Positions 3,677-27,784 of a DNA stretch of 64,000 nucleotides are shown here, piece by piece; position 1 is the stretch's first letter; each line of letters starts with the position of its first letter. The notes beneath the pieces are model-generated. The model did no database searches, was not told the DNA's origin, and was given only the letters and a program-made list of their open reading frames with translations. The DNA comes from a virus: IMG/VR virus record IMGVR_UViG_3300044641_002725; one strand, given 5' to 3'. The translations under genes and the position numbers were made by a program.

Positions 3677-4060
3677 ATGGCCGATATTATTTTTTACAAA
3701 GATTTACCATTAGATTTCACACCTCATCCTGTGACTGGTGACGTTCGTCCCATCACAAATGAAGTCGCAATTAGAAGGTCTTTGACAAATTTAATTAATA
3801 CGACAAAAGGATCACGTCCATTTTTTCCTGAGTATGGTAGTAGTGTTAAAAAGTATTTGTTTTCTGTAAATAGTGAATTTACACTTTACGAACTTAAAGA
3901 CAGTCTTAAGCGAGACATTGAAAAACATGAAAGACGCATAACACTAACAAATATACTAGTAGATTATTCAGATGATGGGTTTGATATCAAATTAGAATAT
4001 GTGATTAGAAATGCTTCTGGCATTTCAAGTTTACAAACAACAGTCAAAAGGACAGCATAA
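3677..4060 (+). CDS. gp25: Baseplate wedge subunit gp25
   Basis: YKDLPLDFTPHPVTGD, AIRRSLTNLINTTKGSRPFFPEYG, IEKHERRI; CATAAATA late box at 3659-3666. Confidence 0.9.
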   Translation: MADIIFYKDLPLDFTPHPVTGDVRPITNEVAIRRSLTNLINTTKGSRPFFPEYGSSVKKYLFSVNSEFTLYELKDSLKRDIEKHERRITLTNILVDYSDDGFDIKLEYVIRNASGISSLQTTVKRTA

Positions 4061-5877: not shown

Positions 5878-5878
5878 A

Positions 5879-8473: not shown

Positions 8474-8480
8474 AAAGAAT

Positions 8481-8488
8481 TATAAATA
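8481..8488 (+). promoter_or_regulatory. T4-type late promoter (gp55-dependent)
   Basis: TATAAATA in the intergenic gap upstream of gp8. Confidence 0.75.
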
Positions 8489-8536
8489 CTACAGTTAAAA
8501 TAGTATCAACGAACAAATTTCAGTAAAGGGAAAAAC

Positions 8537-9817
8537 ATGGCTTCCATAGTAACTAGCAAATTCAGAGTCCACAATGCACAGCAGTTCGTGGAGTCTTTCT
8601 CAGAAGCGGCAAACACAACAATGTATTTGTTTGTCGGTAAAAATACAGCATTTCCAGACGATAACAATCCTCCAACTCCAGTAAATTCCACAGCAAATAT
8701 TGAATTTACTCCATGGCGTGATATGTTTGGTGCAAAGCGTATTCAATCGACTGACGTAACACACGCAATTGAACGCTATAACTGGACTTCAGGTACAGTT
8801 TATGACGCATATGACGACCAAGACACGAATTTATTAGATGACGATTTCTATGTTCTTACTGAAGACTATAATGTATACAAGTGTTTGTTTAATGCTGGAG
8901 GAACAGCATCAACAACAAAACCAACAGGTGTAAGCACATTACAATTTACAACTGCTGATGGTTATATTTGGAAATACATGTATACAGTTACTACTTCAAA
9001 TGCTTTGAAGTTTTTGACGAATGATTATATTCCAGTTCAGACTTTAACATCGGATGACGGATCCGATCAATGGGATGTTCAGCAAGCCGCAGTAAATGGC
9101 GGCATTCACGTTATTAAAGTGACTGCTGGTGGCTCTGGATACGCTACTGCGCCTGCGGTTACAATTACTGGTGACGGAACTGGTGCCACTGCAAATTCTA
9201 CAATTACTGCTAACGTAGTTACAGCAGTTACAGTTACTAACATTGGTTCAGGATATACAAGAGCAACAGTTTCATTTGCATCAGGTGCGGCAACTGCTAC
9301 AGCAGTCATTTCACCAAAAGGTGGGCATGGTGCAGATCCAGTTGAAGAGTTGGGTGGTAAGTATGTTATGATTAACTCTCGTTTAGATGGTAGTGAATCT
9401 AATACAATTTCCACAGCAAACGAATTCAGACAAGTCGGTTTAGTTAGAGATCCACTTTTATTTGGAACTACAACAAGAGCAACGGCATCTTCATTTAGAC
9501 AAACTTTCCGTTATACTGTAGCAAACACTGGTAACTATACAGTAGATGAAGTTGTTACAAGCGGAAGCAATACTGCATTTGTTGTTGAATGGGATGCAAC
9601 AAATAATTATTTGTATACAACTAAGCCTCTCAACCAAAACTTTGCAAATGGTGCATCAATCACTGGCGCTACTTCAGGAACATCTCGTACAATTACCGCA
9701 ATCAGTACTGCAAGTTTAGACCCATACTCTGGTGATCTATTGTATGTTGAAAATAGAGTTCCAATTGCAAGAGCGTCTGACCAAATTGAAGATGTGAAAC
9801 TAATTATTCAATTCTAA
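8537..9817 (+). CDS. gp8: Baseplate wedge subunit gp8
   Basis: [49 protein letters not shown]...EDVKLIIQF. Confidence 0.92.
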
Positions 9818-9839
9818 GATAAAATAGGTTTAAAATTAA

Positions 9840-12800: not shown

Positions 12801-15800
12801 GTGTTCGGTATCAATGATGGTGTTCCAGCACAAGCTGGTAATCAGAGAGCAGAATCTCCACCAACTAAACCTGATACATTAGAAATCGCAGAATTAACTA
12901 TTCCACCATATCCTTCTTTACCGTCAGAAGTAAAAATCAAATTGTTGAAAAACAAACGATTCACTATGCGTGACGTTGCAAGAATAAATGAGAGACTTGA
13001 AAGACTAGAGTATTTTACTGCATTGAGTTTCTTAGAAAAACAAGCGACTGATACAACAGAATTAGACAATGATGGATTAGACAGATTCAAAAATGGTATT
13101 CTTGTTGACCCATTTACAGGTTGGGCTGTAGCATCTACATCTAGTGATGGTAAAGATTGTGCAATTGATAAGAAGAACAAATTGTTGACATGTTTACAAG
13201 ACAACGCAAACACAGTTGGTCTTCGTTATTCTACTACAGCACCCGCTCTTTCAACAACAACTATAAATTCTGGCAACAAAATTATGTTGCCGTTTGCTGA
13301 AGTTGAAGCAAAGGGATTAAAACAAGATAAAGCATCTAGACAATTAAGACTTGCTGAAGAATTAAACTTTGTTTGGACTGGTGATTTAATCGCTGTACCA
13401 TTTACAGACAATTTCTTTGACACTACAAACGATCCTACAAAAGCAGTTGTTTACAATGATGACCAAGGTGCAGACAACTGGAAAGCATTAGTGAGTGCAT
13501 GGAACACAGAAGTTGCACCATTAAATCAAAAATGGATTGGTGGCACAACGCAAACTGCAATCGTTGCTGGAACAAATCAAACAGCACAAGTTGGTAATTT
13601 CAACGTTACTACTGCACTACAGCAAACGACACAAGAAGCATTTAATCAATTAGCGGCAGGCAATCAAACAACATCTTCTACACAAGATGTTAAGTTTGAT
13701 AGAGTTGTTCAAGTTGAAGCCGCACTCAGAATGCGTCCTCGTGACTTTGTTATTCAAGCTACAGGATTAAAAAATAATTCTAGAGTTTATGCATTCTTTG
13801 ATGGTGTAAACGTTACCGCAAATTGCTTTCAAATTTCATTGTTCGGTAATACTACAGTACAATCATTAAACGACTTGATGAACAGCGCAGGTCAACTGAC
13901 TGGCAATAGTGCAAGCACTTGGGAAGCTACTGCTAATGGTGCTACACAACCACTCATTGTTAAAAACAATCAAATTATATTATTGTTTGAAGTTCCAGCT
14001 GGTAAATTTTTTACAGGACAACGTGAATTCAAAGTTACAGACAGTCCTACAAATTCTGAGGGAACAACATTAACTAGTGCAAGAAATACAATTTTTTCAC
14101 AGGGAATTTTACAAAAAACTGGTTCATTTACAATCAACTCTCGCCCATTTAACGTAACATTTAATAGCACAAACAATATTAAATCGTTAGGTCGAAAAGT
14201 TATTTCTGAACAGAGAGTTGAAATAGCCAGGTCTGAAATTCCACCACCACCGCCACCAAGAAATTGGGATCCATTGTCTCAAAGTTTCTTTGTTGATCCA
14301 GATACATTCACAAAAGGATTCTATTTAACTTCTATTGATCTTTTCTTCAGAACAAAATCGCAAGAAGACACTAGAAATGTTAGAGTTGAAGTTCGTGAAA
14401 TGGAAAATGGATTTCCATCTGCACAATTTATTAGCGAAACTGATAGCGCAGTTGTCAACAATAGAAACATTTTAATTAGTGAAGATGCATCTAAGGCAAC
14501 TAAATTTACATTTAAGAATCCTATCTATTTGAGTCCTGGTAATGATTACTGTTTCACCGTTAAACCTGAAAACAATGATCCAGATTACGCAATTTGGGTT
14601 GCTGAATTAGGTGCAATTGACATTACTAATCCAGACAGACAGACTAGAATTGAAAGTGCATACAATAGTGGAATTTTGTTCACATCTTCAAATGATAAGA
14701 CATGGACAACAAAACAAAACATTGATATGAAATTTACAATGAGAGTTGCTGAATTTAATACTTCAGAGAAAGTTGCATTCTGGGCTAATATTCCACAAAC
14801 AACTGCATTTACTTATGATGCATTGACTCCAGCTATTAGCGATCAAATTCTTCCTGAAACAAGCATTACTTATGATATCAAGACTGCTGACAGTTCATTT
14901 ACAGTTGATTCTGATTATACTACAGTTAAAAACTATGAAAGATTGGTGTTACGTTCTAGAAAACAAATTTCTAATACCGCTTCAGAAACATCAAGCGCAT
15001 TTAAATCTTTGCAAGTAAAAGCAACATTGTCTACAGCTAATAAGTTTATTACTCCATACATCGACAATGAAAATATTAGATTTCACTTTGATAAAAATAT
15101 CATTAACAATTCAGATAGCACGGCCGTAACAGGAACAGTCGAATATAGTTCTGGCAATAATATTGTTATTGGTACTGGTACAACTTTTACGACACAAGTA
15201 TTCCCTGGTGAATACGCATACTTTGGTGACGAATACCGCAGAGTTTCTTCGGTAACAAGTAACACAGTTTTGACTGTTATAAACAACTTTACCACGTCAA
15301 ATGCAGTCAGTCAAGCAATGACAACTCGCAATGAAGAAAATCCAACTGGACCATATTCTTCACAGTCTAGATACATTACTAAAGTTGTGACGTTGAATGA
15401 CGGATTTGAAGCGGCTGATCTAGTCACTTATTTAAGAATCAATCGTCCACCAGGAACTTCAATTAAAGTTTATGCTAAGTTATTGAATGAGAATGACTCA
15501 GACGCATTTGATGATAAATTCTATACTCCTATGGAATTAGTTGGAACAGAAACGTTCACACTCAATCAAAATGAGTACAAAGAAGAAAAGTATGTTGTTC
15601 CGTCTGTAGCTAAAACTGGTGGTTCTGAATTGCTTACTGGTACAGTTGCAGTTTCTGACGTATCAACAACAGTTACTGGCACATCTACTCGCTTCATTGA
15701 AGACTTGAAGATTGGTGACACAATTGCTGTCGGTACAGCTAGAACAGAACGTGTGGTTTCTACGATTGCAAACAATACATCATTGACAGTTGAATCTGCA

Positions 15801-15983
15801 TTCACTACAGTTGCTTCTACGCAAGACGTTTTCCGTGTTCTAAATAACACAGTTGCATATACGACACCTGATGGAAGAACATTCCAAGGCTACAAACAAT
15901 TCGCAATTAAGATTGTTTTCTTGTCTAGCAATCCAAGTTTTGCACCAAAGATCAAAGATTTACGAGGCATAGCATTAGCATGA
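9840..15983 (+). CDS. Large virion structural protein (DUF4815/VrlC-like)
   Basis: PYFDDYDEDKKFVRILYRPGRAVQARELTQ, APGADRLKI, RFKNGILVDPF, DPLSQSF, PKIKDLRGIALA; follows gp8. Confidence 0.85.
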   Translation: MANTYPGGIDLDTSPYFDDYDEDKKFVRILYRPGRAVQARELTQSQSLQQVQTKRFAEYFFKQGALVDGCEQNLDLNLNFVKLQTNYNGSEVAVANLLNTIVYGANSGIKAYCGLVTDIDGDDPKTLFISYATNGTQVLTVNVAPTTLTSGNTITFSTGNTATIETFYTDPISGVIKIFVSNTNGTLTATTANTVLSTGATQVINVTAVSDQSANTAFANSETIFTANTTSRVYALAAATNAVRNVVNEGLATQQIYNYGSKITVSEGVVYVADHFVKHSTQTILLDKYTNEPSYKIGLVPNKSFVDYIEDQTLVDNAQGTPNFQAPGADRLKIDTTLTKVALNETTDENEFITITEIENGIARKRKSITVENKLEEVLAKRTQEESGNYTLSDPIVVVREHLINGDNDGRYTSAEGGNTDLLLVEVDPFTSYVSGYRNQLITKTPIEIEKGLSTQYVEQTKTQINYGQYIEVKEVVGAWDIMESTTVDLYDTAQQVITNLAHSTATAAGSAIGTARVRSIEYVSGAKGTADARYYLYLYDIVMSAGKNFKDVRSIFDSATPKRFADVVTTAAGAVLQETSFGTMIFPLPYEAIKTVRDNSENVETSFRFKKKFTVSFTSGVATVATDVVSETFVGTGLLNATQKNDFYMVVVNNAGANVATSALTGTVTVGAANTVVIGSGTSFNTQLNVGDLITINSLTRSVANIASATVLTLSTAHTTGSTANTFTKTLATGTILSLSGNGGSGATRTVNVTSPGTVAIDVKENATFTADVIVSMDRANSKEKVKTLNFQTQANINPNTHISGLSGPFGLGVGDIYQLHAVYQSSSFAIAATTANTDVTANYILDNGQRDYAYEHGTITPITGYVPTGRLLAVFDNFVHDTSQGVGYTSVNSYPVDDNATSNTTITTADIPVFTSPTTKKVFKLRDSIDFRPIKTANTSLNPIDVGTYEVPTFGLRVPESGSDFDADLIYYKGRISKVYINNAGVFGINDGVPAQAGNQRAESPPTKPDTLEIAELTIPPYPSLPSEVKIKLLKNKRFTMRDVARINERLERLEYFTALSFLEKQATDTTELDNDGLDRFKNGILVDPFTGWAVASTSSDGKDCAIDKKNKLLTCLQDNANTVGLRYSTTAPALSTTTINSGNKIMLPFAEVEAKGLKQDKASRQLRLAEELNFVWTGDLIAVPFTDNFFDTTNDPTKAVVYNDDQGADNWKALVSAWNTEVAPLNQKWIGGTTQTAIVAGTNQTAQVGNFNVTTALQQTTQEAFNQLAAGNQTTSSTQDVKFDRVVQVEAALRMRPRDFVIQATGLKNNSRVYAFFDGVNVTANCFQISLFGNTTVQSLNDLMNSAGQLTGNSASTWEATANGATQPLIVKNNQIILLFEVPAGKFFTGQREFKVTDSPTNSEGTTLTSARNTIFSQGILQKTGSFTINSRPFNVTFNSTNNIKSLGRKVISEQRVEIARSEIPPPPPPRNWDPLSQSFFVDPDTFTKGFYLTSIDLFFRTKSQEDTRNVRVEVREMENGFPSAQFISETDSAVVNNRNILISEDASKATKFTFKNPIYLSPGNDYCFTVKPENNDPDYAIWVAELGAIDITNPDRQTRIESAYNSGILFTSSNDKTWTTKQNIDMKFTMRVAEFNTSEKVAFWANIPQTTAFTYDALTPAISDQILPETSITYDIKTADSSFTVDSDYTTVKNYERLVLRSRKQISNTASETSSAFKSLQVKATLSTANKFITPYIDNENIRFHFDKNIINNSDSTAVTGTVEYSSGNNIVIGTGTTFTTQVFPGEYAYFGDEYRRVSSVTSNTVLTVINNFTTSNAVSQAMTTRNEENPTGPYSSQSRYITKVVTLNDGFEAADLVTYLRINRPPGTSIKVYAKLLNENDSDAFDDKFYTPMELVGTETFTLNQNEYKEEKYVVPSVAKTGGSELLTGTVAVSDVSTTVTGTSTRFIEDLKIGDTIAVGTARTERVVSTIANNTSLTVESAFTTVASTQDVFRVLNNTVAYTTPDGRTFQGYKQFAIKIVFLSSNPSFAPKIKDLRGIALA

Positions 15984-16231
15984 TAGTAGAAAAGATTTTA
16001 ATTGCTGAACCCGTTCGTGGATTCACCGAAAGGGATAAAAACTCTAAAGCCATCTTGAATACGGATGTAGACTCGCTTTTGAAATATAAAATTCAAAAAC
16101 GCAAAGCATCAGAACTAAATAAGAATGCCAACGACATAAATGTTCTAAGGTCTGAAGTAGTTCAAATCAAGTCGGATTTGAGTGAAATTAAAAGCATGTT
16201 ATTGCAAATAACTAATAATAACAGAAGATAA
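15980..16231 (+). CDS. Conserved small coiled-coil protein following the DUF4815 gene
   Basis: RDKNSKAILNTD...SEIKSMLLQI; ATGA coupling to the upstream gene. Confidence 0.65.
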   Translation: MIVEKILIAEPVRGFTERDKNSKAILNTDVDSLLKYKIQKRKASELNKNANDINVLRSEVVQIKSDLSEIKSMLLQITNNNRR

Positions 16232-16235
16232 AAAA

Positions 16236-17573
16236 ATGACAATTAATAGTGTAATTTTAGCAAATACGTTTAATGAGTTTAGATCGACCGTTAATGAAGT
16301 CATTACGACCGTTAATGCTGGATTCGGCGTATCAGCAGGCACTGGTACGGGACTAACATCTGGAAGAGTTGTTCTTGGTGGCGCATCAGGCTCATTCACA
16401 GACGATTCTGAACTCACGTATGATACAAGCACAAACGTACTAACGCTTGGTGGAACAACAGATGCAACTGCGGCTAATAATGGAACTCTTGTTGTCGCTG
16501 GTGGTGTTGGTATCGCTAAAAAGTTATATGTTGGAACAGACTTAAGAGTAACTGGAATAACAACATTTGAAGGTAACGTATTTTTCTTAGGTTCAAATAC
16601 TTCAATCTCTACTGTTAATATTGAAGTCAATGATCCAATGCTTCATTTAGCCAATAACAATGTATCAGACGCAGTTGATATTGGTTTTCATGGACAATAT
16701 AATCAAGGTGGTGCCAACTTACACTCTGGTTTTTTCAGAGATGCTTCAGATGATACTTGGAAGCTATTCAGAAATTACAACATTGAACCAGCGCCAGCAA
16801 TTGATATTACTGCTAACGGGTTTGCATGGGCAAACTTAGCTATTGGCGGACTTACGGCTGCCAACAGTATCAATATTGGACCAGGACAAACATACAAGAT
16901 TAATACTGTTGACGTTTTAAGCGCAACGGCATTAGGGTCTTCAGTTGTCACATCGTCACTCACATCAACTGGCACAATTACTTCAGGCACATGGTCTGGT
17001 TCTTTCGGTGCAGTTAGCGGTGCAAACTTAACTTCATTAAACGCAAACAACATTGCAACAGGAACAGTAGCGCCAGCAAGACTTGCTTCAGGCACAGCAG
17101 ACGCTACTACATTCTTGCGTGGTGACAGCACTTGGGCATCAGCGGCTGTTTCAATTACAGATAACACAGCAACAAATTCAACATTCTTTCCAGTATTTAC
17201 TAGTGTAACATCTGGATCAATTGTTGGTGCGAATACATCATCTACAAAATTAACTTTCAATCCAAGTTCTGGATTGTTAACGTCAACTGATTACAATTCA
17301 TCTTCTGATGTGACATTAAAAGAAAACTTTACAGAGATTGTAAATCCATTAGACATTATATCTCAACTTGACGGATTTGGATTTAGTTGGAAAGACACAA
17401 AAGAAAAATCTTATGGGCTGTCAGCGCAACAAGTCGAGACAGTACTTCCTGAAATCGTTAGGGTTCGTCCTGATGGCACAAAAGGTATTAATTATTTGAA
17501 TTTGATTGCCTTTTTAGTAGAAGGAATTAAAGATTTAAAAGAAGAAGTTCGCCAACTCAAGTCTTATAAATAA
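16236..17573 (+). CDS. Tail fibre protein with C-terminal intramolecular chaperone (peptidase S74-like)
   Basis: G/T/S-rich fibre body; C-terminal SDVTLKENF...YGLSAQQVETVLPEIV...INYLNLIAFLVEGIKDL. Confidence 0.85.
   Translation: MTINSVILANTFNEFRSTVNEVITTVNAGFGVSAGTGTGLTSGRVVLGGASGSFTDDSELTYDTSTNVLTLGGTTDATAANNGTLVVAGGVGIAKKLYVGTDLRVTGITTFEGNVFFLGSNTSISTVNIEVNDPMLHLANNNVSDAVDIGFHGQYNQGGANLHSGFFRDASDDTWKLFRNYNIEPAPAIDITANGFAWANLAIGGLTAANSINIGPGQTYKINTVDVLSATALGSSVVTSSLTSTGTITSGTWSGSFGAVSGANLTSLNANNIATGTVAPARLASGTADATTFLRGDSTWASAAVSITDNTATNSTFFPVFTSVTSGSIVGANTSSTKLTFNPSSGLLTSTDYNSSSDVTLKENFTEIVNPLDIISQLDGFGFSWKDTKEKSYGLSAQQVETVLPEIVRVRPDGTKGINYLNLIAFLVEGIKDLKEEVRQLKSYK
17565..17572 (+). promoter_or_regulatory. 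T4-type late promoter
   Basis: TATAAATA upstream of the 17599 ORF. Confidence 0.65.
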
Positions 17574-17598: not shown

Positions 17599-18276
17599 AT
17601 GGCAATTAAAGTCGGCAGTTGTACAGTCATTGATGACACAAGAAATCTAGCAAACGTATGCTCTATTTCATTGGTGTCTGGTGGGCAAGGAACAACAGGG
17701 CAAGTTTTAAAATCCCAAGGCACAGGGCAACCCTCAACTTGGGGTGCAGTTGATGCTATTACCAATTATGCGTATGATAGCAGAAATGACCTTAGAGCCA
17801 CAACACCAACAAACGGATCACAAGCATTCGTAGAAAATTTAGGATACTTTTCATTCAGTTTGGCTTCCGATGAACCAGATGACGATGAAACATCATTCAG
17901 AACATCAAATGGTGCTTGGCTTCTCTCTGCACCTATTTGGGATACAATTGAAGCATTCAATGCCTTTGAACCAAATGGCGGAAACTACAGCCTTGAAGTT
18001 GTGAATCAATTTGCTGGTGTTTCACCTTGTACATTTGCATGTCAATGTGTTTCTCTGCCAGGTGCAGTTCAAAGCGATGTTGTAGAAATATATGCAGTAT
18101 GTGGCGGATCTTTTGGTGGTCAAGTCTTTATGCGATATTGTGATCCGGCGTGGTGTATTGTTGCGTGGGGCGGCCCATCTGTTTGTGCAAGCGGTCCATG
18201 TAGCCCATCTGCAAGCATATGCGGAACTTGCTATGCAAACGTATGCAAGTGGAAAATTCATGTTCAGAAGGTATAA
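17599..18276 (+). CDS. Tail fibre-associated protein with Cys-rich C-terminus
   Basis: Fibre-type N-terminus MAIKVGSCTVIDDTRNL and GTTGQVLKSQGTG motif; 13 Cys, 11 of them in the last ~85 aa. Confidence 0.65.
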   Translation: MAIKVGSCTVIDDTRNLANVCSISLVSGGQGTTGQVLKSQGTGQPSTWGAVDAITNYAYDSRNDLRATTPTNGSQAFVENLGYFSFSLASDEPDDDETSFRTSNGAWLLSAPIWDTIEAFNAFEPNGGNYSLEVVNQFAGVSPCTFACQCVSLPGAVQSDVVEIYAVCGGSFGGQVFMRYCDPAWCIVAWGGPSVCASGPCSPSASICGTCYANVCKWKIHVQKV

Positions 18277-18293
18277 ATAGATGACTATAAATA
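18272..18293 (+). promoter_or_regulatory. Tandem pair of T4-type late promoters
   Basis: TATAAATA at 18272-18279 and 18286-18293, directly upstream of the Cys-rich gene. Confidence 0.75.
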
Positions 18294-18324
18294 GAATACT
18301 AGAAATAATCAAGGGGAGAACACC

Positions 18325-21300
18325 ATGCCAGTGGTAAGAGGTATACGAGTTTTAAATGCAATATCGACAGGGAATACAACACCCGGCTGTCTTGATACTT
18401 TGCTATCCGATGGTGGACGATTAGCCGATGTAACACAGGTGCTAAGTTCTCCACAATATTCATGTGCGTTGGCGCAATCAAATACTGCGGCACACACTCT
18501 AGTTCGTTCTAATAATGCGATGACTGCATTGTTTGCAAATCCAATTGGATCATGCATATTCTATCAAACTACTAATAGTAGAGATGATATGTTGGGGTCT
18601 TCTTGTTACTACAACTACATGATGAGTTTTTCAACACCAGAGGCAACTAATGCGTTCAATCACTTTGGTAATACACCATGTATGATTAACTGTGCATTTG
18701 CTAGTAACACAGCATTTTTAGCTACCGCAGTATCATCAAACTCAGATATTACTAAGATGTTAACGTGCAATTCGTGTGTATCTGCATGTTTTAGAGGTAC
18801 TGCATGTTCAATAAAAGAAGCCGTTGGAACTGCAGGTCGTGCGGCATTTTGGTTAAGTGATGCAACTGCACTTGGTTGTTTGACTGCATCTGGTTTAAGT
18901 ACTGCACTTTGCACCAGCGGATTTACAGACACTCTCAATAGAGATGTTGCATGTGTGATGTGTACTGCGGCTTTTCAATGTTGTATTTTCGCTCTGTCCG
19001 AGCCAGCAAATACATACACTAGATTAGTGTGTGCAACAAACGAAATTATCACTAAAGGCGCATGTGGCGAAAACGAAACAAGCTGTAATTTTGCTAGATG
19101 GTCTAATACTTCCTTTGGTATTTGTTGTATGGCTAAATTTCTTGAGTCAGGAAATACGTATTTCATGGATTGCTTCGCTTCTTTTGGTAGCAATAGACAA
19201 AGAGCATGTCTTTTTTGCTTTTGTACCACATTGACTGGTTCAAACCCCATATGTCCTTGCGGCAGCCTCGGATCTGGCCTCGAGCAATATGGGCACCGTA
19301 TAATCAAGTCCGACGTTATCGGTCGTGGATGCTATGTCGAAAACGATCCTAATGCTCCACATTTATATTTTCCATGCGGTGGGTTTAGACAATGTCCAAT
19401 GACAATTGCAAATGGATCTCAACTTTCAAATACTGAAGTAGAATATCTAGGTCGATTCATCAAGTGTAACTATAACGTTATTACACACGCAGACTGTAGA
19501 TTTACGATGATTTCTCCAGGATTCTGGAATCAAAGTAGTGCTATTGCATGTTTTAGAACTTGCTATACATGTTCTTTGGACAGAACAACTGCAAACACAT
19601 CTGGTTTGACATTGAATTGTGGATTGTATTATACAACAGACAATGCGGCTACATTCAATCGCCTTTGTGTGCCTCTTCCAGCATGTATTTTCCAACAACT
19701 TTGTGGAAATGTTTGCTGTCAATTTACAGTTAGATATGCGTTAAGTACTTTTGCATGTTGCAACTACGTATACACTGGTTGGATTATTACTGATTGCGCT
19801 ACTAATAATGGTGCCTCTGGTGTCTGTGGTCCAGCATATTTCAAAACTGGGCACTCAAGAATGTGTCTGTTTGCCAACAGTCAACCAAATACTGCATCTT
19901 GGACTCACTTTCCAGATGTTCCGTTGCCATTCTATACAGTTGCATTCTGTGATGAGTACTTTGCTGGCGTAAGCCCAATGAGAACTGATGGATATCAAAC
20001 CACATTAGGAATTGAAAATCAATTATGTTGCCAAGAAGCTGGGCAATATGCTATGATGTTCTCTTTTGGTAAAGTTGGAGGTTGCGTTAGAATTAGTTGC
20101 GACCATTTTGTTCGAAATACACCTGCTGGTTTAGCATGTTTTACTCCATGTACATGCTGTAATGCATGTCTGTCATTGCCAGCGGCCACACATTGTATTT
20201 ACGGCAGATGTTATGAAGATTATTTTCAAGGGCATGGATCAGGAACGCTTCCATACTGTCTGTGCCAGGCTCCTCACGTTACCTGCACAGACACATGTTC
20301 GATCCTGAGACACATGATTAACCCAACTGCGGCATCTCACACATTAATTTATAAAAACCCAAACAATCAAGCGGATTCTAAAGCATTCCTTGTTGGCTGG
20401 AGATCATTTGCAATGTTATATGGCGGTACCGCTGGTGGCTCCATCGCCACTTGCACGATGCTAGGTGCCCGAGACCAATTCCATTATTACAATTGTTGTA
20501 CATGCCGTGGCCAAGCCGAAGGCACAGTAGGCGGCTGTGGATATTTTAGAAATACACCTGGTGTGAACGTCTGGTGCTATGGCTCTCAAGCAAATAATAC
20601 AATGCAAGGAACAGAACTTGATTGTACTAACGCTTTAGCGATTGGTGGTAGTGCATGTTCTTGGACAAACTTTACTTTTGCAAATGCTAAAATAATTGGA
20701 TGTAGACTTGTGTTATCTGGAGCATATCCTCCAGTAATGACTATGTGTGCATGTTGTGCCAGTTGTGACGGTACCTCTGGTAGCACCGCCGTAGGCACAT
20801 CAGAAGGCGCTCACATTGGAGGGAATTTTGGATGCCAAAACGCATTAGGACAAACCGGACACACAACAGTATTTAATACAGATGGTGTTGTTGGAACAAT
20901 TGTGTGCTGTTTTGAGTCTATGTATCATCAAACTCCAAATAGTAGAGGCTACGATAGTACAATATGTAATCAAGTTTTTCATTGCTCTTATTGTTCTGGC
21001 AGATGTTTTTGTTGTAATTCAGGAGTTTGCCAGTGCATGGGACATGCTGGACAGCGCCATCACTTTGCGGCCGCAATTCTTTCCGATGAAGCTGGCTTGA
21101 AGACAGTTAATTTTTATGGTTCATCAAATTCAGTATATTCAGTCCCAGCATTTCCTAACATGCCTCCAATGATTGCATGTAGGCCTAATTGTGCTCATGC
21201 CGATTATCAGAACACTACTTGCTATGTTTCTCCGGCACCTACTGGCAGTAATATTGTTAGATCAGACAAGAGTATATTTTGTGTTATAGATATAGGTGAT

Positions 21301-22503
21301 GCATTTCAGCTATGTCATTTTGGCAATGCCGGTTGCTGTTGCCATGCGTCCACAGCCGAATGTGATAACCGCTTTTTTCATCAATGTAATCCTGGAAACG
21401 CAAATTCTATCGGAATCGTTGTAGCACACCACCTCTTCGGCGCAACCGGGCCGCACCCAGGTTGCTTTGCGGCAGTTTATACTCCCAAAAACTGTAGTCA
21501 AGACATGACAACGTTTGATGAAACGTTCAACTTCTGTTATCTCATAGCACCACACAAAGATTTTTGTTTGGAAGGGCCATACTGCTTTAATAGAGCATGT
21601 GAGTGTTTTGGTCCTAATTGCTGTTTGAGTGTACCATGTTCTCCTTGTTGCCCTGCCTGTAATATTGTGCTTTGTTGTCAAACCGGCGTTTGTGGCGGCA
21701 CTTACTCGGCTGACCATCCAGTATGTAATTTTACTAGAGCCAACGGTTTCACCGCACAACATGTGTGTGTTAATCAGATTGATACTCACTATCCATGCTG
21801 TCAGACACCACCACGCCGTTGCTGTGCGGCCTTTGTGGGATGTTGTGGAATAGGCAATCATTTTAAAGTTGTGGCGAACAATAATTCAACGTTTCAATGT
21901 GCAATGCTTGTTTGCGTACATCAGGCATGTGGCTCATGCATTGCGGGCGGTGCCTACACTGGATGTTGTTTTTCTGACAGTCGCACATGTTGTAGAATGA
22001 TTCCTTATGATAGACTTATGAGAACGTGCAATCAAGCTGGCCCTAATTGTTTGTGGTTTGATTTTATATCAAGTGGTGTTCCTTCATGGGGCGCATGTAA
22101 CTCTTGCAATTATAGACCATGTAAATCATATTGGAATGCACAATATATGATGGATATAAGAGTTTCTTGTGCTGATACATGTTTCTGTTGCAACTGCCTC
22201 TGTTTTGCCGCCCAAGATCATCGTAAGAGATCAGGATTTCAACTTTATAGTGCATGTAATTCAACATACTTTGCCGTAGATTCCCTTTGTTATGAGGTGA
22301 TGCCTGCAACTCAAACAAGAGGTTCTGGAGCACCATTAAATACTCAAAATAGCGTACACATTGCATATTTTGATTTGACTCCATATAGATGTTCTGCCTC
22401 TGGTGGTGGTGGATTCTTTGCAAATGGTAATCCAAGCGGTACTGTGTCCGGATGTTCTTGCTGTTTGATGTTTACCAAAATAGATATGTTCTATAATCTA
22501 TAA
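18325..22503 (+). CDS. Extremely cysteine-rich putative fibre/receptor-binding protein (1392 aa)
   Basis: Uninterrupted ORF with GGAG Shine-Dalgarno and late promoters; about 145 Cys by hand count; flanked by fibre and fibre-assembly genes. Confidence 0.7.
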   Translation: MPVVRGIRVLNAISTGNTTPGCLDTLLSDGGRLADVTQVLSSPQYSCALAQSNTAAHTLVRSNNAMTALFANPIGSCIFYQTTNSRDDMLGSSCYYNYMMSFSTPEATNAFNHFGNTPCMINCAFASNTAFLATAVSSNSDITKMLTCNSCVSACFRGTACSIKEAVGTAGRAAFWLSDATALGCLTASGLSTALCTSGFTDTLNRDVACVMCTAAFQCCIFALSEPANTYTRLVCATNEIITKGACGENETSCNFARWSNTSFGICCMAKFLESGNTYFMDCFASFGSNRQRACLFCFCTTLTGSNPICPCGSLGSGLEQYGHRIIKSDVIGRGCYVENDPNAPHLYFPCGGFRQCPMTIANGSQLSNTEVEYLGRFIKCNYNVITHADCRFTMISPGFWNQSSAIACFRTCYTCSLDRTTANTSGLTLNCGLYYTTDNAATFNRLCVPLPACIFQQLCGNVCCQFTVRYALSTFACCNYVYTGWIITDCATNNGASGVCGPAYFKTGHSRMCLFANSQPNTASWTHFPDVPLPFYTVAFCDEYFAGVSPMRTDGYQTTLGIENQLCCQEAGQYAMMFSFGKVGGCVRISCDHFVRNTPAGLACFTPCTCCNACLSLPAATHCIYGRCYEDYFQGHGSGTLPYCLCQAPHVTCTDTCSILRHMINPTAASHTLIYKNPNNQADSKAFLVGWRSFAMLYGGTAGGSIATCTMLGARDQFHYYNCCTCRGQAEGTVGGCGYFRNTPGVNVWCYGSQANNTMQGTELDCTNALAIGGSACSWTNFTFANAKIIGCRLVLSGAYPPVMTMCACCASCDGTSGSTAVGTSEGAHIGGNFGCQNALGQTGHTTVFNTDGVVGTIVCCFESMYHQTPNSRGYDSTICNQVFHCSYCSGRCFCCNSGVCQCMGHAGQRHHFAAAILSDEAGLKTVNFYGSSNSVYSVPAFPNMPPMIACRPNCAHADYQNTTCYVSPAPTGSNIVRSDKSIFCVIDIGDAFQLCHFGNAGCCCHASTAECDNRFFHQCNPGNANSIGIVVAHHLFGATGPHPGCFAAVYTPKNCSQDMTTFDETFNFCYLIAPHKDFCLEGPYCFNRACECFGPNCCLSVPCSPCCPACNIVLCCQTGVCGGTYSADHPVCNFTRANGFTAQHVCVNQIDTHYPCCQTPPRRCCAAFVGCCGIGNHFKVVANNNSTFQCAMLVCVHQACGSCIAGGAYTGCCFSDSRTCCRMIPYDRLMRTCNQAGPNCLWFDFISSGVPSWGACNSCNYRPCKSYWNAQYMMDIRVSCADTCFCCNCLCFAAQDHRKRSGFQLYSACNSTYFAVDSLCYEVMPATQTRGSGAPLNTQNSVHIAYFDLTPYRCSASGGGGFFANGNPSGTVSGCSCCLMFTKIDMFYNL

Positions 22504-22516
22504 CGTGAATTAACAT

Positions 22517-22933
22517 ATGAAACTTATCGTAGAAAATAATCGTGTTATAGCAACAACATTTGATGGATATGAAGGACCTCAGCAATGGGTTTCTTCTCCA
22601 TCAGACTTTGTTGAGTCTAGAGCATTCGAATATACATATATTAATGGTGTTCTAGACTTACCAATGCTTCCATATCTTGAAATAGAAACACAAAGAAGAT
22701 TGGACACATTCGCACAAACAAGAGGATATGAAAATATCAATTCTGCAACGACATATATAAGTTCGTCAGTAACAAAATATAAGAATGAGGGTACATATGC
22801 CGCTACTGCTAGAGATAGCACTTGGTCTGCATTGTACCAAATCATCGATGATGCAACTGATGGTAGAAGAGAAAAGATTGTAAATTTTTCTGAAATTGAA
22901 TCTGAATTACCATCACTTGCTTGGCCAACATAA
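22517..22933 (+). CDS. Tail fibre assembly/chaperone-like protein
   Basis: QRRLDTFAQTRGYENINSATTY...RDSTWSALYQI...ELPSLAWP resembles fibre-assembly proteins of proteobacterial phages. Confidence 0.65.
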   Translation: MKLIVENNRVIATTFDGYEGPQQWVSSPSDFVESRAFEYTYINGVLDLPMLPYLEIETQRRLDTFAQTRGYENINSATTYISSSVTKYKNEGTYAATARDSTWSALYQIIDDATDGRREKIVNFSEIESELPSLAWPT

Positions 22934-23027: not shown

Positions 23028-23966
23028 ATGAAAAAAGTAATTTATATTGACGGTGGTGCAGGAAGAGCAATTGCGGCACTACCAGCACTTGAAAAATTAG
23101 TTAGAAACAAAAAACCAGAAGATGACATAAAAATTATTGTCATGGGATGGGACAATTTATATTGGGGCAATCAACTGCTTCAAGATATCACATTTAGTGC
23201 AGATACAAAAGGTATCTTTGATCTAGTCATTAAAGGCGCAGACAAACACATCAGCCCAGAACCATATAAAGTTCCAGAGTACTATAATCAAAAAGTATCT
23301 CTAGCGGAAGCGTTCGACATTGAAATCAATGGCACACATGACCATTCTGATTTACCTCCACTCAAGTTGTACACTAGCAAAGCAGAAGAAAAGAATGCCG
23401 CTAATATGATTGCAGACATAAAGATGCAACAGAAAAAAGACAAGACACTTGTGATTCAACCTTATGGTAGAAGTGCAAGAGTTGATCGTGCTGACATTAT
23501 CGATGATTCATCTAGAGGTCTTGATTCACACGCATACTTACGTTTAGTTAGAAAACTTTCAACAAAGTACAATCTTATTTTGTTTGCAGAGAAACCATTT
23601 CACCAGCCAGATGATAACTTCACCTTTAAACCTGAAATAGATTTAAGGTCATGGTCTGCTGTTATTGAAGCGGCTGATTATTTTGTTGGTTGTGATTCTG
23701 TCGGACAGCATATGGCAAGAGCGTTTAATAAGCCAGGAACTGTTTTCATCGGATCCACATTCGCAAAGAACGTTTCATATCCAGATTGGTTCAATATTTA
23801 CGAACGACCTGGAGTCGAAAAGAAATACTCTCCAATTCGTATTTCTGGTTTAGATTCACACTTAGCAGATAGATACAATGACAAGTGCATGGATTTATCT
23901 GATAAAGATGTAGACGAGTTGTTTATTTCAATTGTTAAAGATATAGAGAAGAAGGTAGGAAAATAA
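23028..23966 (+). CDS. Glycosyltransferase, GT9/heptosyltransferase-like (GT-B fold)
   Basis: N-terminal GGAGRAIAALPAL (cf. GxGDxxxxxP) and C-terminal ADYFVGCDSVGQHMARAFNKPGTVFIGST (cf. DSGxxHxAxAxxxPxxxxxGxT). Confidence 0.7.
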   Translation: MKKVIYIDGGAGRAIAALPALEKLVRNKKPEDDIKIIVMGWDNLYWGNQLLQDITFSADTKGIFDLVIKGADKHISPEPYKVPEYYNQKVSLAEAFDIEINGTHDHSDLPPLKLYTSKAEEKNAANMIADIKMQQKKDKTLVIQPYGRSARVDRADIIDDSSRGLDSHAYLRLVRKLSTKYNLILFAEKPFHQPDDNFTFKPEIDLRSWSAVIEAADYFVGCDSVGQHMARAFNKPGTVFIGSTFAKNVSYPDWFNIYERPGVEKKYSPIRISGLDSHLADRYNDKCMDLSDKDVDELFISIVKDIEKKVGK

Positions 23967-23967
23967 T

Positions 23968-25740
23968 ATGAGTTATAATATTTTAGGTATCAATCCTGGT
24001 CATAATGGTTCTGCGGCATTACTAGTTGATGGTGAAGTTGTATACTATGTTGAAGAAGAAAGATTAAGTCGTGCTAAGTATGATGGTAATCCATTCAGAG
24101 GCATGTTAGACATTATGCAGAAATGGCACGTTGATGAACTTGTCATTGCTGGTACTGGACAAGAAGAACATAAACTTCCGTGGACAGGTGAAGATGCGTA
24201 TACTGCGCTTGTTCGCAAATTCTATCCTAATGTAAAAGTACAAAGACTTGGAAATGAACATCACTTGGGTCATGCCGCATCTGCATTTTACAATTCTGGA
24301 TTTGAAACAGCAATTGCACTTATTGTAGATGGTGCTGGTTCACTCAAAAAAGAAAAAGTGGATGAGAAGAATGAAACTATCACAGCCGAAGGATATGAAA
24401 CAGAATCGATTTGGCATTGTGAATATCCAGGCAAATTTGCTTTAGTGCGAAAAGTTTATGGTAACAATGCCGGACCAAAAGTCGATACTGGAGTATTTGA
24501 TTTTGATGGTGGCGCAACAACTGTTACTAAAGCATACGAAGCAGTATCTCAGTACTTAGGCTTTGGTTTTATCGAAGCAGGTAAGACAATGGGACTTGCA
24601 CCATATGGTAAGTATGATGACAATATTCCTAGATTGTTTAATGGTAATAGGGGTTCAAAAGATGTTTTCATTCCTGCATATCCAGCGGGTGCTTACATCG
24701 ACCAAGGAAGATTTCCATATCTAAGACAATATGCAGATCCAAGAGATTGGCATAAAGACTCTGAAAAATTAACAACTGTTGAAAAGAATCTTGCTTGGCA
24801 TATTCAAAATGATACGCAACAGATAATTGGTGACTACATTGAACTTGCAGTTCAAGCTACAAAAGTAGAAAATATTGTTATCGCTGGTGGTTATGGTTTG
24901 AATTGCGTTGCAAACTATTACTTAAAGAAACGTTTTCCACATTTAAACATTTATGTTGAACCAGTCGCAAATGATGCTGGTACTGCAATTGGTGTTGCAA
25001 AACTTTCTTGGCACACTTCACAAAATGATAGTACAGTTCGCCCACAGAAAAGCATCTATTACGGACCTGAGTATTCAAAAGAATTGCTTGAGTATATCTT
25101 AGACGCAAACAAAGAAGCAATCAAAGTAACTCCTACTACAAAAGAAGAAGTTGCACAATTGATTGCTGATAAAAATATTGTTTCGATCTTTCAAGGTCGT
25201 TCTGAAGCTGGTCCTCGTGCATTGGGTAATCGTTCTATTCTTTATGATTCAAGAGATCCAGAAGGTAAAGACAAAGTTAATCTTGTCAAAGGTCGTGAAT
25301 GGTTTAGACCATTTGCAGGCTCTGTCTTGCTAGAAGACGCAAACGATTGGTTTGACATGGCTGGACTTGAAGAGTCTCCATTTATGATGTATGCAGTTAA
25401 TGTTGCCGCAGACAAAGTGAGTGAGATTCCGTGTGTTACACACGTTGATGAAACTTGTCGTGTGCAAACTGTTTCTGAAGAGAACAACAAGCATTACTAT
25501 GAATTGATTAAGGCATACAAAGACATTACTGGTGTTCCAGTTATCTTCAATACTTCATTCAATCTTGCTGGTCATCCTTTAGTTGAGACACTACAAGATG
25601 CATTGATGACAATCTTTAGTTCTAAACTAAAATATATCTACTTGCCTGAGTTAGGTGTTCTTGTCGAAAAGACAATTGATGATCCAACAGAGAAAGTTGA
25701 AGCTGAAGAAGTTGAAACAGAAACAGCAACTGAAGAATAA
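23968..25740 (+). CDS. O-carbamoyltransferase (NodU/CmcH/TobZ family)
   Basis: EEERLSRAK, HHLGHAASAF, DGAG, GKTMGLAPYG, GGYGLNCVAN, GPRALGNRS, REWFRPFA, NTSFN. Confidence 0.93.
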   Translation: MSYNILGINPGHNGSAALLVDGEVVYYVEEERLSRAKYDGNPFRGMLDIMQKWHVDELVIAGTGQEEHKLPWTGEDAYTALVRKFYPNVKVQRLGNEHHLGHAASAFYNSGFETAIALIVDGAGSLKKEKVDEKNETITAEGYETESIWHCEYPGKFALVRKVYGNNAGPKVDTGVFDFDGGATTVTKAYEAVSQYLGFGFIEAGKTMGLAPYGKYDDNIPRLFNGNRGSKDVFIPAYPAGAYIDQGRFPYLRQYADPRDWHKDSEKLTTVEKNLAWHIQNDTQQIIGDYIELAVQATKVENIVIAGGYGLNCVANYYLKKRFPHLNIYVEPVANDAGTAIGVAKLSWHTSQNDSTVRPQKSIYYGPEYSKELLEYILDANKEAIKVTPTTKEEVAQLIADKNIVSIFQGRSEAGPRALGNRSILYDSRDPEGKDKVNLVKGREWFRPFAGSVLLEDANDWFDMAGLEESPFMMYAVNVAADKVSEIPCVTHVDETCRVQTVSEENNKHYYELIKAYKDITGVPVIFNTSFNLAGHPLVETLQDALMTIFSSKLKYIYLPELGVLVEKTIDDPTEKVEAEEVETETATEE

Positions 25741-25765
25741 AAAAAGCCCCTTTTGGGGCTTTTTT
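25741..25765. terminator. Bidirectional rho-independent terminator
   Basis: AAAAAGCCCC-TTTT-GGGGCTTTTTT between convergent genes. Confidence 0.85.
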
Positions 25766-25766
25766 G

Positions 25767-26465
25767 TTATGCAAGAGAATTTGCAAAATCTAGTAGAGAG
25801 TTAAACGTCTTTGTTTTATTCTTTAACTCCTTATTTGCAAATGTATCTAGTTTAGACTCTACATCTTCATAACCAGGAGATTTAATTAGAATAGGTTTTG
25901 CATGTACAGAGTCGCCAGCTTTCAGATTATATAATTTGTTGCCTGCAAAGTATCCACCCTTGAATGCAACTTTCATATCATTCTCAGCACGTTTCATCAT
26001 ACCATTGTTTGGCATTGCAAACAAATCTTCTTTCATGTTGGATGTTGCATATAGAAGTCCGTCAATTGTAAAGATTCCAGCTTGACCAAAATAATTCATC
26101 AACTGTTGAACATTAGAATCTACTGCTTGAGTAGTTAATTTACCTTGACTGATTAGGGGTTCATTAAAGAATATGACAAGTTTATATCCTTTTAGACGAA
26201 TAGTACGAATTGCATCTAATGCACCAGGAAGTATTTCTATATCAGATGGATTAATAATAGGTTTAGTGTCATTTAAAATTACACCTCTATCAATACCAAT
26301 TGTTTCTTTAGGAAAATAAGTTGGCCAGTTTTGCTGTTGCTGAGGCATTTGTTGGCCATATGGTGAACTATAGTTTTGTTGTCCGTACGGTTGCATCTGT
26401 GGCATAGTAGGTGATGGTGGTTGACCACCAACGTTCATGCTTCTATCTATTGAAAATCTTCCCAT
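25767..26465 (-). CDS. gmhB: GmhB-like HAD protein (heptose bisphosphate phosphatase fold), catalytic motifs degenerate
   Basis: Aligns by eye to GmhB (ILPGALDAI, GYKLVIFFNE, IDGLLY, PNNGM, FAGNK) but lacks key residues; Q/P-rich N-terminal extension. Confidence 0.7.
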   Translation of the reverse strand: MGRFSIDRSMNVGGQPPSPTMPQMQPYGQQNYSSPYGQQMPQQQQNWPTYFPKETIGIDRGVILNDTKPIINPSDIEILPGALDAIRTIRLKGYKLVIFFNEPLISQGKLTTQAVDSNVQQLMNYFGQAGIFTIDGLLYATSNMKEDLFAMPNNGMMKRAENDMKVAFKGGYFAGNKLYNLKAGDSVHAKPILIKSPGYEDVESKLDTFANKELKNKTKTFNSLLDFANSLA

Positions 26466-26477
26466 TGTTAAATCCTC

Positions 26478-27392
26478 TCAAATCTTAAAAAATTCATTTA
26501 TACTTCTGAAATGCGTTTTAATTCCTGCATCTCTTAATTTAGTCATGTCAGCACACGTCCAATATTGATATTTTGTTTGATACTCTTTTGGAAAAGGAAC
26601 AGTTTCAACTTTAGCATTTTCTCTCTGTGCAATAATTTCAGCAACTCTAGCAAAAGATTCTGGTGCACCTGTGCCCAAATTAAAAATTCCACTATTCATT
26701 TTGTTGAATGCTAATTCTATTTTGGCTTGTACAATATCTTCAACACAAACGAAATCTCTGAATATACTTTCTGAGCCAGAGAATAATTTTATTTTTCCTG
26801 TTTCTCTTGCTTGAATAGTAAACTTGGTGATTGGGCTTGCTTGATCTTTCTTATGCAATTCATTTTCGCCATAAACATTGAAGTATCTTAGCCCTTGAAT
26901 GTTGAATTCAAACTTACTAGAGTATTCTGACTCCATCAATTTAATAATTTTTTTGTCAAACATATATTTAGAAAATGCATATGGTGTTTGTGGATACATT
27001 GAAGCAGATTCTGGCACTCTGAAGTTTGCGGGCATGTCACCGTAAACACTTGCACTAGATGCATATTGAAAAGGTATCTTATGTTCAAACGATTTTCTCA
27101 AAAGTTTTTCTGAGAATTCATAATTTCTTTTCATTAACAAAGTACCATTTGTTTCTCTAGTAGAAGAAATTGCACCTTCATGGAAAATAAACTTGACACT
27201 ATCCCAATCAGAGAATGTATCAAAAAATGAATCAACATCATAATAATCACCAAACGTTGTGCCGTTTAGATTCATCATCTTATTGCCATCAGTCAAATCA
27301 TCAACAACTATGATTTCTGATATGCCTCTTGCATTTAATGCTCTAATTAAATTTGATCCAATGAATCCAAATCCGCCAGTAACCAGTATCAT
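26478..27392 (-). CDS. hldD: ADP-L-glycero-D-manno-heptose 6-epimerase
   Basis: VTGGFGFIGSNL, FHEGAISST, YASSASVYG, YAFSK, LRYFNVYG, RDFVCVED, YQYWTCADMTKLRDAG. Confidence 0.92.
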   Translation of the reverse strand: MILVTGGFGFIGSNLIRALNARGISEIIVVDDLTDGNKMMNLNGTTFGDYYDVDSFFDTFSDWDSVKFIFHEGAISSTRETNGTLLMKRNYEFSEKLLRKSFEHKIPFQYASSASVYGDMPANFRVPESASMYPQTPYAFSKYMFDKKIIKLMESEYSSKFEFNIQGLRYFNVYGENELHKKDQASPITKFTIQARETGKIKLFSGSESIFRDFVCVEDIVQAKIELAFNKMNSGIFNLGTGAPESFARVAEIIAQRENAKVETVPFPKEYQTKYQYWTCADMTKLRDAGIKTHFRSINEFFKI

Positions 27393-27763
27393 TATTGTTC
27401 CTTGCTCTGCTGACTATCTCCAGGCAGAACACGATAATTATCTTGAACACTATCTGGTGTGGAGACTTCTATGATTGTGCCTTCTTCTAGGCAAATAACT
27501 TGATGTGGTTGTAGAGGACGATTACGCCAAACTTCTCCAGCTTTCAGCGTTACGTCATGCATACTTGCGTCTTTAGTCTCAATGAATTTAATCATAAATA
27601 AACCATCTAACACATACCAAGATTCATCTTTTTCAGCATGGAAGTGCATACTGAATTTTGCGCCTTTATTGAACTTCATCAATTTGCCGCAATACTTATC
27701 GTTGGTAGCCCAAATCAATTCGTGACCCCAACCCTTTTTCACAAAACCTTCTAGTCTTTCCAT
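27392..27763 (-). CDS. Cupin, sugar isomerase-like (mannose-6-phosphate/D-lyxose isomerase type)
   Basis: KGWGHE, SMHFHAEKDESWYV, PHQ, IEVST; GAGGTG Shine-Dalgarno before ATG 27763. Confidence 0.75.
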   Translation of the reverse strand: MERLEGFVKKGWGHELIWATNDKYCGKLMKFNKGAKFSMHFHAEKDESWYVLDGLFMIKFIETKDASMHDVTLKAGEVWRNRPLQPHQVICLEEGTIIEVSTPDSVQDNYRVLPGDSQQSKEQ

Positions 27764-27784
27764 ATTATTCACCTCGCTTATAAC

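Follow-up and report, generated by a model that had tools for sequence, protein, structure and literature searches.

The 64,000-nucleotide sequence of the virus record IMGVR_UViG_3300044641_002725 from IMG/VR (the window, meaning the whole stretch of DNA that was analysed) belongs to an uncultured T4-like myovirus and encodes, on its + strand at positions 18325..22503, a protein of 1392 amino acids (aa) of which 10.4% are cysteine. Judged from genomic context and homology, this protein (P0001) is very probably a fibre or receptor-binding protein. Its sequence portrays a putative host-recognition fibre of unprecedented composition with an unmodelled body of ~1000 aa, and we found no description of a cysteine-dense phage fibre of this kind in the literature. 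Tail fibres set the host range of phages; being assembled in the reducing cytoplasm, they normally contain hardly any cysteine. The retention of ~10% cysteine through near-complete sequence turnover suggests a chemistry not yet considered in phage adsorption, such as oxidative curing, redox gating or metal capture. Among the proposed roles of the cysteines, the evidence leans toward density-dependent cross-linking. For the combined statement that P0001 is a tail fibre or receptor-binding protein and that, after lysis, disulfides come to hold it together in a dense, redundant network, we see slightly less than an even chance.

Cysteine content, spacing and conservation

The open reading frame (ORF) of P0001 is intact and contains 145 cysteine codons (103 TGT and 42 TGC; 10.42% of all residues), which matches the ~145 cysteines given by the original prediction, an earlier annotation of this gene made from the DNA sequence. 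The 49 other + strand ORFs of the window contain 109 cysteines in 17,859 aa (0.61%; binomial tail for P0001 ~1e-124), so that P0001 outweighs those ORFs combined in cysteine. The protein is indeed poor in lysine (1.36%) and glutamate (1.80%), and its aromatic residues reach 11% (F+Y+W; F 6.1%, Y 4.1%). Compared with the other structural proteins of the window, P0001 is higher in C (+10.2 percentage points), H (+2.1), M (+1.9) and F (+1.6) and lower in T, V, K, I, E and D. Its His and Met contents are at ordinary proteome levels, and the depletion lies in the other structural proteins. That the structural neighbours are poor in cysteine was likewise confirmed, with six cysteines in the 2047-aa DUF4815 protein. 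The pooled baseplate and fibre proteins (4060-17573 and 37111-40863) are strongly depleted in Cys (0.18%), Met (0.64%) and His (0.46%), which makes the contrast with the cysteine-rich pair of P0001 and a neighbouring 225-aa protein still larger. The sole further cysteine-rich ORF in the window (57791-58252, + strand; 153 aa) has 10 Cys (6.5%) in CxxC pairs and resembles a zinc-binding endonuclease VII-type protein.

The cysteines of P0001 are spaced at random, in agreement with their earlier description as aperiodic. Counts of C-x(0-6)-C match the shuffled expectation (z = -0.4 for CxC and +0.7 for CxxC), and CC doublets are modestly over-represented (22 vs 15.5 expected, z = 1.9; z = 1.2-3.2 in ten relatives). 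When 120-aa windows of the family alignment were compared with each other by hhalign, no internal repeats emerged, and the best probability of 5% gave an internal duplication no support. From the N- to the C-terminus, successive 100-aa segments hold 4, 8, 13, 7, 12, 7, 11, 9, 13, 7, 14, 17, 17 and 6 cysteines. The density thus climbs toward residues 1001-1300, as had been claimed for the C-terminal direction in general, but it drops in the last 92 aa.

P0001 matched no model in Pfam, PHROG or NCBIfam. Searching Pfam with 18 family members at E-values up to 10 yielded nothing save one chance match (DUF1604, E = 0.34), and a profile search of the Protein Data Bank (PDB) was blank at E = 10. Together with the random spacing, these results uphold the earlier statement that the protein is unlike zinc-finger, EGF or ferredoxin repeats, and hevein and other described Cys-repeat domains do not fit it either. 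The ESM Atlas contains the P0001 sequence but no model of it and no look-alike. Neither P0001 nor P0027, a divergent relative, matched any of 50,697 phage records (blastn and tblastn), and no P0001 homologues were found in 185,579 prokaryote genomes.

A word-indexed search recovered 23 metagenomic relatives of P0001 (43-66% identical), none of them named. Among the 18 full-length members that were aligned, Cys numbers run from 130 to 148 (9.4-10.65%), and the range is 9.4-10.8% across all 20 full-length relatives checked, including deep types of 1050-1095 aa. Among the 20 residues, Cys shows the lowest coefficient of variation of its fraction (0.03), with Asn second (0.051). Even the distal segments that cannot be aligned to each other contain 12.0% (P0001), 11.2% (P0027) and 10.9% Cys (P0028, a second deep type). 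Of the 319 cysteine-bearing alignment columns, 53 are invariant and 70 are ≥90% conserved, and cysteine is <25% conserved in 139. Two members at 52% identity share 91 cysteines and have 54 and 53 private ones. In the most distant pairs, private cysteines lie ≤3 columns from a private cysteine of the partner more often than after shuffling (20 of 54 vs 10.6, p = 0.004; 17 of 50 vs 9.8, p = 0.01); this excess was not significant in closer pairs. The spread of total Cys numbers is slightly below the expectation for independent columns (standard deviation 4.5 vs 5.9).

Variable cysteine columns did not co-occur more often than the S, T, A, G and N controls (0.59 per 1000 pairs vs 0.27-3.6), and paired gain and loss of cysteines is therefore not supported. 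Total counts among the aligned members are odd as well as even and follow no parity rule. The question raised with the original prediction, whether cysteines replace Ser, Thr or Asn, can be answered in the affirmative for the variable cysteines. Their exchange is enriched for N (1.7x) and Q (1.5x) and also for R, E, D, G, T and S, and it is depleted for V, I and L (~0.6x; range 0.3-0.65x including M), M (0.33x) and W (0.18x). Since these swaps involve polar residues, the positions are probably exposed and polar, and the mobile half of the cysteines would probably lie on the surface. These patterns suggest that the density of cysteine is under selection and that only about half of the cysteine positions are.

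Fibre-type N-terminal domain and genomic setting

A profile built on residues 1-1190 of P0001 was searched against 1.84 billion representative proteins and matched just 27 of them, which fell into three groups. The first consists of fragments of the P0001 clade. The second contains the deep types P0027 (1095 aa, 10.7% Cys) and P0028 (1053 aa, 9.5% Cys), whose match is confined to positions 1-620. The third comprises ~20 proteins that match the first 75-200 aa alone, most of them Cys-poor (0-1.4%). These Cys-poor relatives carry 10-residue repeats of the ASSTAMxAV type, and some match phrog_7809 (tail fiber) or phrog_10356 (virion structural) or have BNR/sialidase-like C-termini. The fibre homology of P0001, which has no PHROG or Pfam match itself, is limited to this link through the N-terminal ~80-200 aa. 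Three short Cys-rich proteins (P0029, P0031 and P0039; 7-12% Cys) have the same N-terminal domain. Scans of viral contigs with P0028 and P0039 gave no matches.

The shared N-terminal domain spans ~83 aa (18325..18573, + strand; MPxVRGxRxLN..G..L.TLL..R..) and connects P0001 to Cys-poor tail-fibre-like proteins. In a tree of this domain, six Cys-rich sequences grouped together as a single clade (support 92/89) nested in the Cys-poor family, with the three giant types as a starred sub-clade, which indicates a single origin of the Cys-rich N-domains. Shared cysteines add to this signal: C22 and C47 are invariant in and specific to the Cys-rich clade, and the Cys-poor relatives have Q or A at the first and R at the second of these positions. 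The Cys-poor N-domain or its repeats occur in proteins of more than 100 viral contigs. Neither Pfam nor PHROG has a dedicated model for the consensus MPxVRxxRLLNAIExGxTTGxQLETLL..GRLAEF.. (18325-18573 and loci L008-L087), which stands at the head of >100 fibre-like proteins on viral contigs of 52-64% GC; the C-termini of these proteins vary and include ASSTAM repeats and BNR-like propellers. The analysis thus delineates a widespread, unannotated N-terminal domain of fibre-like proteins, which is a candidate new docking-domain family.

In the IMG/VR loci examined, genes for Cys-poor N-domain proteins lie 3' of tape-measure and distal-tail genes or 3' of DUF4815 genes. Behind one of them (locus L011) lies a 173-aa ORF; its N-terminus shows homology to the 138-aa protein encoded downstream of P0001 (39% identity over 49 aa, E = 1e-12), and its C-terminus matches the PHROG tail families 2837 and 1807. 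On another viral contig (L013:3872-7075; 54% GC), a DUF4815/VrlC homologue is split into proteins of 655 and 407 aa (phrog_877/358/5986) and is followed by a Cys-poor N-domain fibre, an arrangement which suggests that the pairing of VrlC with a fibre recurs beyond T4-like phages.

The P0001 gene is located in the tail/baseplate module, between the VrlC/DUF4815 and neck genes. The order of genes is gp6-, gp7- and gp8-like wedge proteins, the 2047-aa DUF4815/VrlC protein, a 445-aa fibre with a Peptidase_S74 chaperone end, the 225-aa protein, P0001 and, further downstream, the neck protein, gp15 and TerL; TerS, sheath and portal genes are also present. The portal and TerL proteins are just 50-57% identical to those of cyanomyophages and the Methylophilales phage Melnitz, and the phage collection searched contained no cultured close relative of this lineage. 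In pelagi- and cyanomyophages, the slot from VrlC to the neck is a hypervariable 'host recognition cluster' with tail fibres and glycosyltransferases (Zaragoza-Solas et al., PMC7029224). P0001 resembles the host-recognition fibres of these phages in the VrlC/DUF4815-neck slot, late promoters, conserved N-terminus, fast-diverging C-terminus, small downstream partner gene and adjoining sugar-enzyme genes (PMC7029224). The described fibres have at most a few cysteines, whereas P0001 has 145, together with a non-repetitive, unpredicted body that lacks any family match.

The original prediction had also placed two tandem late boxes (TATAAATAG, twice) before the gene. Two putative T4-type late-promoter boxes, recognised by sequence match to TATAAATA(G), do lie in tandem 33-53 nucleotides (nt) 5' of P0001 (18272..18293, + strand; 18272-18279 and 18286-18293). 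The window has ten TATAAATA sites, every one of them on the + strand and most of them immediately 5' of late genes. Of the further claim that a fibre-assembly gene follows P0001, the small downstream ORF stands (22517..22933, + strand; 138 aa, free of cysteine); it has no family match of its own, and its link to tail families is indirect, running only through the homologue of its N-terminal 49 aa behind the Cys-poor N-domain fibre. Taken together, the late promoters, the slot in the host-recognition cluster, the fibre-like N-domain and the conserved small downstream partner support the earlier view that P0001 is probably a virion (tail) protein.

Five IMG/VR loci share the same order, namely fibre, Cys-rich protein of 221-225 aa, Cys-rich protein of ~1390 aa, and proteins of 138, 312 and 590 aa and onward. 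In a sister phage with TerL 95% and a glycosyltransferase (GT)-like protein 94% identical to those of the window (locus L007), the slot holds the P0027 type. Its first ~550 aa share 26% identity with P0001, and the remainder cannot be aligned. Identity to the window counterparts is 58% for the 225-aa protein of this phage and 63% for its 138-aa protein, compared with 77-95% for the other flanking genes. In a second sister phage (L006), the identities are 94% for TerL, 52% for the Cys protein and 88% for the 138-aa partner. P0027 and P0028 are 35% identical over ~630 aa and align again in a 44-aa C-terminal tail (E = 1e-5), with nothing alignable between; the tail similarity of P0001 and P0028 is weak (E = 0.64) and not significant alone.

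Within P0001, the most conserved core comprises residues ~355-700 (19387..20424, + strand), with a mean identity of 80-83% at positions 401-600 and 63% at 601-700. It is rich in invariant cysteines, including the doublets C464C465 and C478C479, and its N-terminal part can still be aligned to the 1050-1095-aa types, with alignability ending after the first ~600 aa. The following variable distal part (residues ~701-1330; 20425..22314, + strand) is the densest in Cys, contains the smallest number of fixed cysteines and is unalignable to P0027 and P0028. A conserved C-terminal tail completes the protein (22315..22500, + strand; ..QTRGSG..LNTQNS.H.AYFDL.P..C...F.ANGN...CC.MF.K.D.F.N). As far as sequences can tell, the conserved proximal part, the replaceable distal part and the co-diverging small neighbours form the pattern of a receptor-binding module.

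P0001 was modelled with AlphaFold2 (AF2) in two halves, using alignments of 20-22 sequences. Residues ~40-335 (18442..19329, + strand) were predicted as a stack of short S/T/N-capped helices with a weak 10-12-residue periodicity; the predicted local distance difference test (pLDDT) was 60-83 up to residue ~200 (≥70 in most blocks), and the usable model is limited to residues 1-~200. Fold matches of this N-terminal model were rejected as generic alpha-solenoid similarities under the noise bar for helical repeats. The BFVD matches among them were likewise sub-noise (best E = 6e-3, TM 0.24; two 'tail fiber' models at E = 0.01-0.1).

Possible roles of the cysteines

We propose that P0001 is expressed late in infection, and we infer its location in the virion and its contacts with partner proteins from the context described above. 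The N-terminal ~80-aa docking domain and the short-helix stalk would fix it to the periphery of the baseplate. The ~600-aa proximal part is conserved, and the distal 400-750 aa, which are replaced or fast-diverging, would be the receptor-contacting end. The 225-aa protein with its Cys-dense C-terminus and the Cys-free 138-aa protein, which may be chaperone- or tip-like, are probable partners, as judged from their co-divergence with P0001. In the host cytoplasm, the cysteines would be kept reduced; after lysis, in oxic water, they would oxidise to a redundant network of intra- and inter-chain disulfides, which may also join symmetry-related chains and the Cys-dense end of the 225-aa partner. 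From ordinary packing numbers, each cysteine may be expected to have about one other cysteine within spatial reach, so that such a network would rest on Cys density and not on fixed pairs. A mesh of this kind would permit quick changes of the surface sequence while the scaffold stays rigid and protease-resistant.

The random spacing, the lack of column co-occurrence and of a parity rule, and the exchange with polar residues argue for a density-type rather than a pair-type chemistry. A more specific proposal is that selection acts on Cys density and not on positions, maintaining a 'statistical' thiol surface or scaffold, either a disulfide mesh that cures in oxic water or a soft-metal-binding coat; we put this forward tentatively and consider it somewhat doubtful. 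If this proposal is true, the thiol scaffold could allow very fast evolution of the receptor surface and redox- or metal-dependent adsorption or triggering. Density-selected cysteines would then be a design principle undescribed for any phage protein, and P0001 would add a new fold of ~1000 residues, a region that lies beyond current structure prediction. If the host is sulfur-limited, the 180 sulfur atoms per fibre chain would be a notable cost.

Several observations weigh against a disulfide network. Disulfide partners usually covary and keep even counts, and neither was seen in the P0001 family; redundancy is our inferred reason for both absences. No fold was obtained for residues 335-1392 (AF2 pLDDT 20-27). 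The best PDB fold match of the N-terminal model is a receptor-binding protein (7qlr_A, C. difficile phage CDHS-1), but with Z = 7.9 it lies below noise. The ORFs of the window contain no thioredoxin- or glutaredoxin-type, thiol oxidase or isomerase motifs. In addition, the raised His and Met contents relative to the structural proteins (+2.1 and +1.9 points) also fit the binding of soft metals.

Cross-linking by cysteine density has counterparts outside phages. Keratin-associated proteins, OmcB and OmcA of Chlamydia and the exosporium protein CdeC of C. difficile use a high Cys content for cross-links that form after the proteins leave a reducing compartment, with density prevailing over exact pairing. 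They differ from P0001 in being matrix or coat proteins and have no sequence relation to it. The variant surface proteins (VSPs) of Giardia and the immobilisation antigens of ciliates contain ~10-12% Cys, arranged periodically in repeats of the CxxC type, and pass through an oxidising secretory pathway on export. P0001 resembles these proteins in being large, fast-varying, probably exposed and ~10% Cys; in contrast to them, it is aperiodic, without CxxC enrichment, and would be made in the bacterial cytoplasm. Among phages, the freshwater myophage Pam3 anchors its fibres to the wedge by disulfide bonds that involve a Cys of the N-terminal helical domain of the fibre, and dithiothreitol releases them (PMC9942802). 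Pam3 and the phage of the window are both aquatic myophages with cysteine in the N-terminal helical domain of a fibre or putative fibre, and redox-sensitive attachment has been shown for Pam3 alone. Pam3 has one Cys per fibre chain and small Cys-rich wedge loops, whereas P0001 contains 10% Cys throughout and the wedge-like proteins of the window have 0-2 Cys each.

An alternative that we judge unlikely, although it survives better than the two discussed below, is that Cys, His and Met of P0001 bind soft metals (Zn, Cu, Fe, Cd) as metal-thiolates. The metal could reside in structural clusters that keep the fibre together, or it could load a surface that engages a metal-uptake receptor of the host; the second case would be a thiol counterpart of the iron-in-tail-fibre idea. 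In T4, gp37 binds Fe by means of HxH motifs. The joint excess of C, H and M over the structural proteins of the window would fit this explanation, as would the CC doublets, which are raised in every member tested, and the invariant His residues close to invariant Cys (e.g. C381-x6-H388-x2-C391 and H510-x3-C514). Variable cysteines also seem exposed, and failure of AF2 is common among metal-dependent folds. However, the usual metal-thiolate spacings CxC and CxxC are not enriched in any member (z ~0), no metal-binding family was matched even at E = 10, and the His and Met contents are merely those of an ordinary proteome. Metallothioneins and copper-storage proteins share the high Cys content and the CC doublets; P0001 differs from them in lacking CxC/CxxC enrichment, in its many aromatic residues (F 6.1%, Y 4.1%), in being ~20x larger and in having conserved non-Cys blocks.

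Enzymatic modification appears improbable. In this case, the cysteines would be acceptors for thioether cross-links introduced by a radical S-adenosylmethionine (SAM) enzyme encoded elsewhere in the genome, or for S-glycosylation by the neighbouring GT9-like/ADP-heptose-type gene set. Radical-SAM cassettes are mentioned in host-recognition clusters (PMC7029224), and sugar-enzyme genes lie directly downstream of P0001 in conserved order. This block (23028-27772), part of the host-recognition cluster, encodes a GT9-like protein (a weak match), a NodU/CmcH-type carbamoyltransferase, a GmhB-like HAD phosphatase, an NAD epimerase and a cupin. Such sugar genes are, however, usually read as modifiers of the host envelope (PMC7029224). 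The GT-like protein remains 94-95% identical between sister phages while the Cys protein falls to 26%, and it has homologues in 55 isolate records (including P-SSM2, S-SSM7 and Vibrio phages) of the same collection in which P0001 had no tblastn match; this conservation and the occurrence without the Cys protein weaken a specific tie between the sugar enzymes and P0001. Neither the window nor loci L002-L007 contain an ORF of ≥100 aa with a CxxxCxxC motif, and three related viral records, which are 11-16% complete, gave no Pfam match to Radical_SAM (PF04055). The fibres known to be matured by radical-SAM enzymes (NCBIfam TIGR04114/TIGR04115 type) are, like P0001, Cys-rich and belong to phage tail-fibre modules. 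Their cysteines are periodic (C-x3 or 12-residue repeats) and a radical-SAM/SPASM enzyme is encoded next to them, whereas P0001 has random spacing, unlike CXXX-repeat substrates, and no such enzyme in the window or related fragments.

Least probable seems an explanation without special thiol chemistry, in which reduced cysteines serve only as small residues, owe their abundance to an accident of the lineage (the founder effect of an orphan gene that evolves fast) or belong to a non-virion protein: it agrees with the absence of partner covariation, of a motif and of a parity rule, but not with a 17-fold Cys excess kept at 9.4-10.8% down to 26% identity and in unalignable segments with gains balancing losses, with 0-1% Cys in neighbouring genes under the same mutational regime, with 53 invariant cysteines, or with the late promoters, fibre-type N-domain and conserved partners that point to a virion role.

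Neighbouring genes and other features of the window

The 225-aa partner gene (17599..18276, + strand) is itself preceded by a TATAAATA late-promoter-like box (17565..17572, + strand). Its product has a fibre-like N-terminus, which contains ..GGQGTTGQVLKSQGTGQPSTWG.., and 13 Cys (5.8%), mainly within the last ~85 aa. In the alignment of 42 sequences (41 homologues and the window protein), members have 9-15 Cys, of which C8, C21, C168, C186, C201 and C216 are conserved and the remaining ones are in flux. Within this family, two groups can be told apart, which correspond to the two types of giant Cys protein. A GGGGAG sequence that reads as a Shine-Dalgarno-like site (18313..18318, + strand) lies 6 nt 5' of the ATG of P0001.

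In the sugar-enzyme block, the order of genes is conserved in every related locus that reaches far enough. The match of the GT9-like protein is weak (Pfam E = 0.007, TIGR02201 E = 6e-5), and the GmhB-like HAD phosphatase carries a Q/P-rich N-terminal extension.

Two further ORFs on the + strand were recorded. One (37111-40863), whose start lies inside the end of the portal gene, encodes a protein of 1250 aa that has collagen triple-helix repeats and also gave an alanine-zipper match. The other, inside the baseplate operon, encodes a 323-aa protein (1579-2550) with a weak match to Zeta_toxin/P-loop kinases (E = 1e-5).

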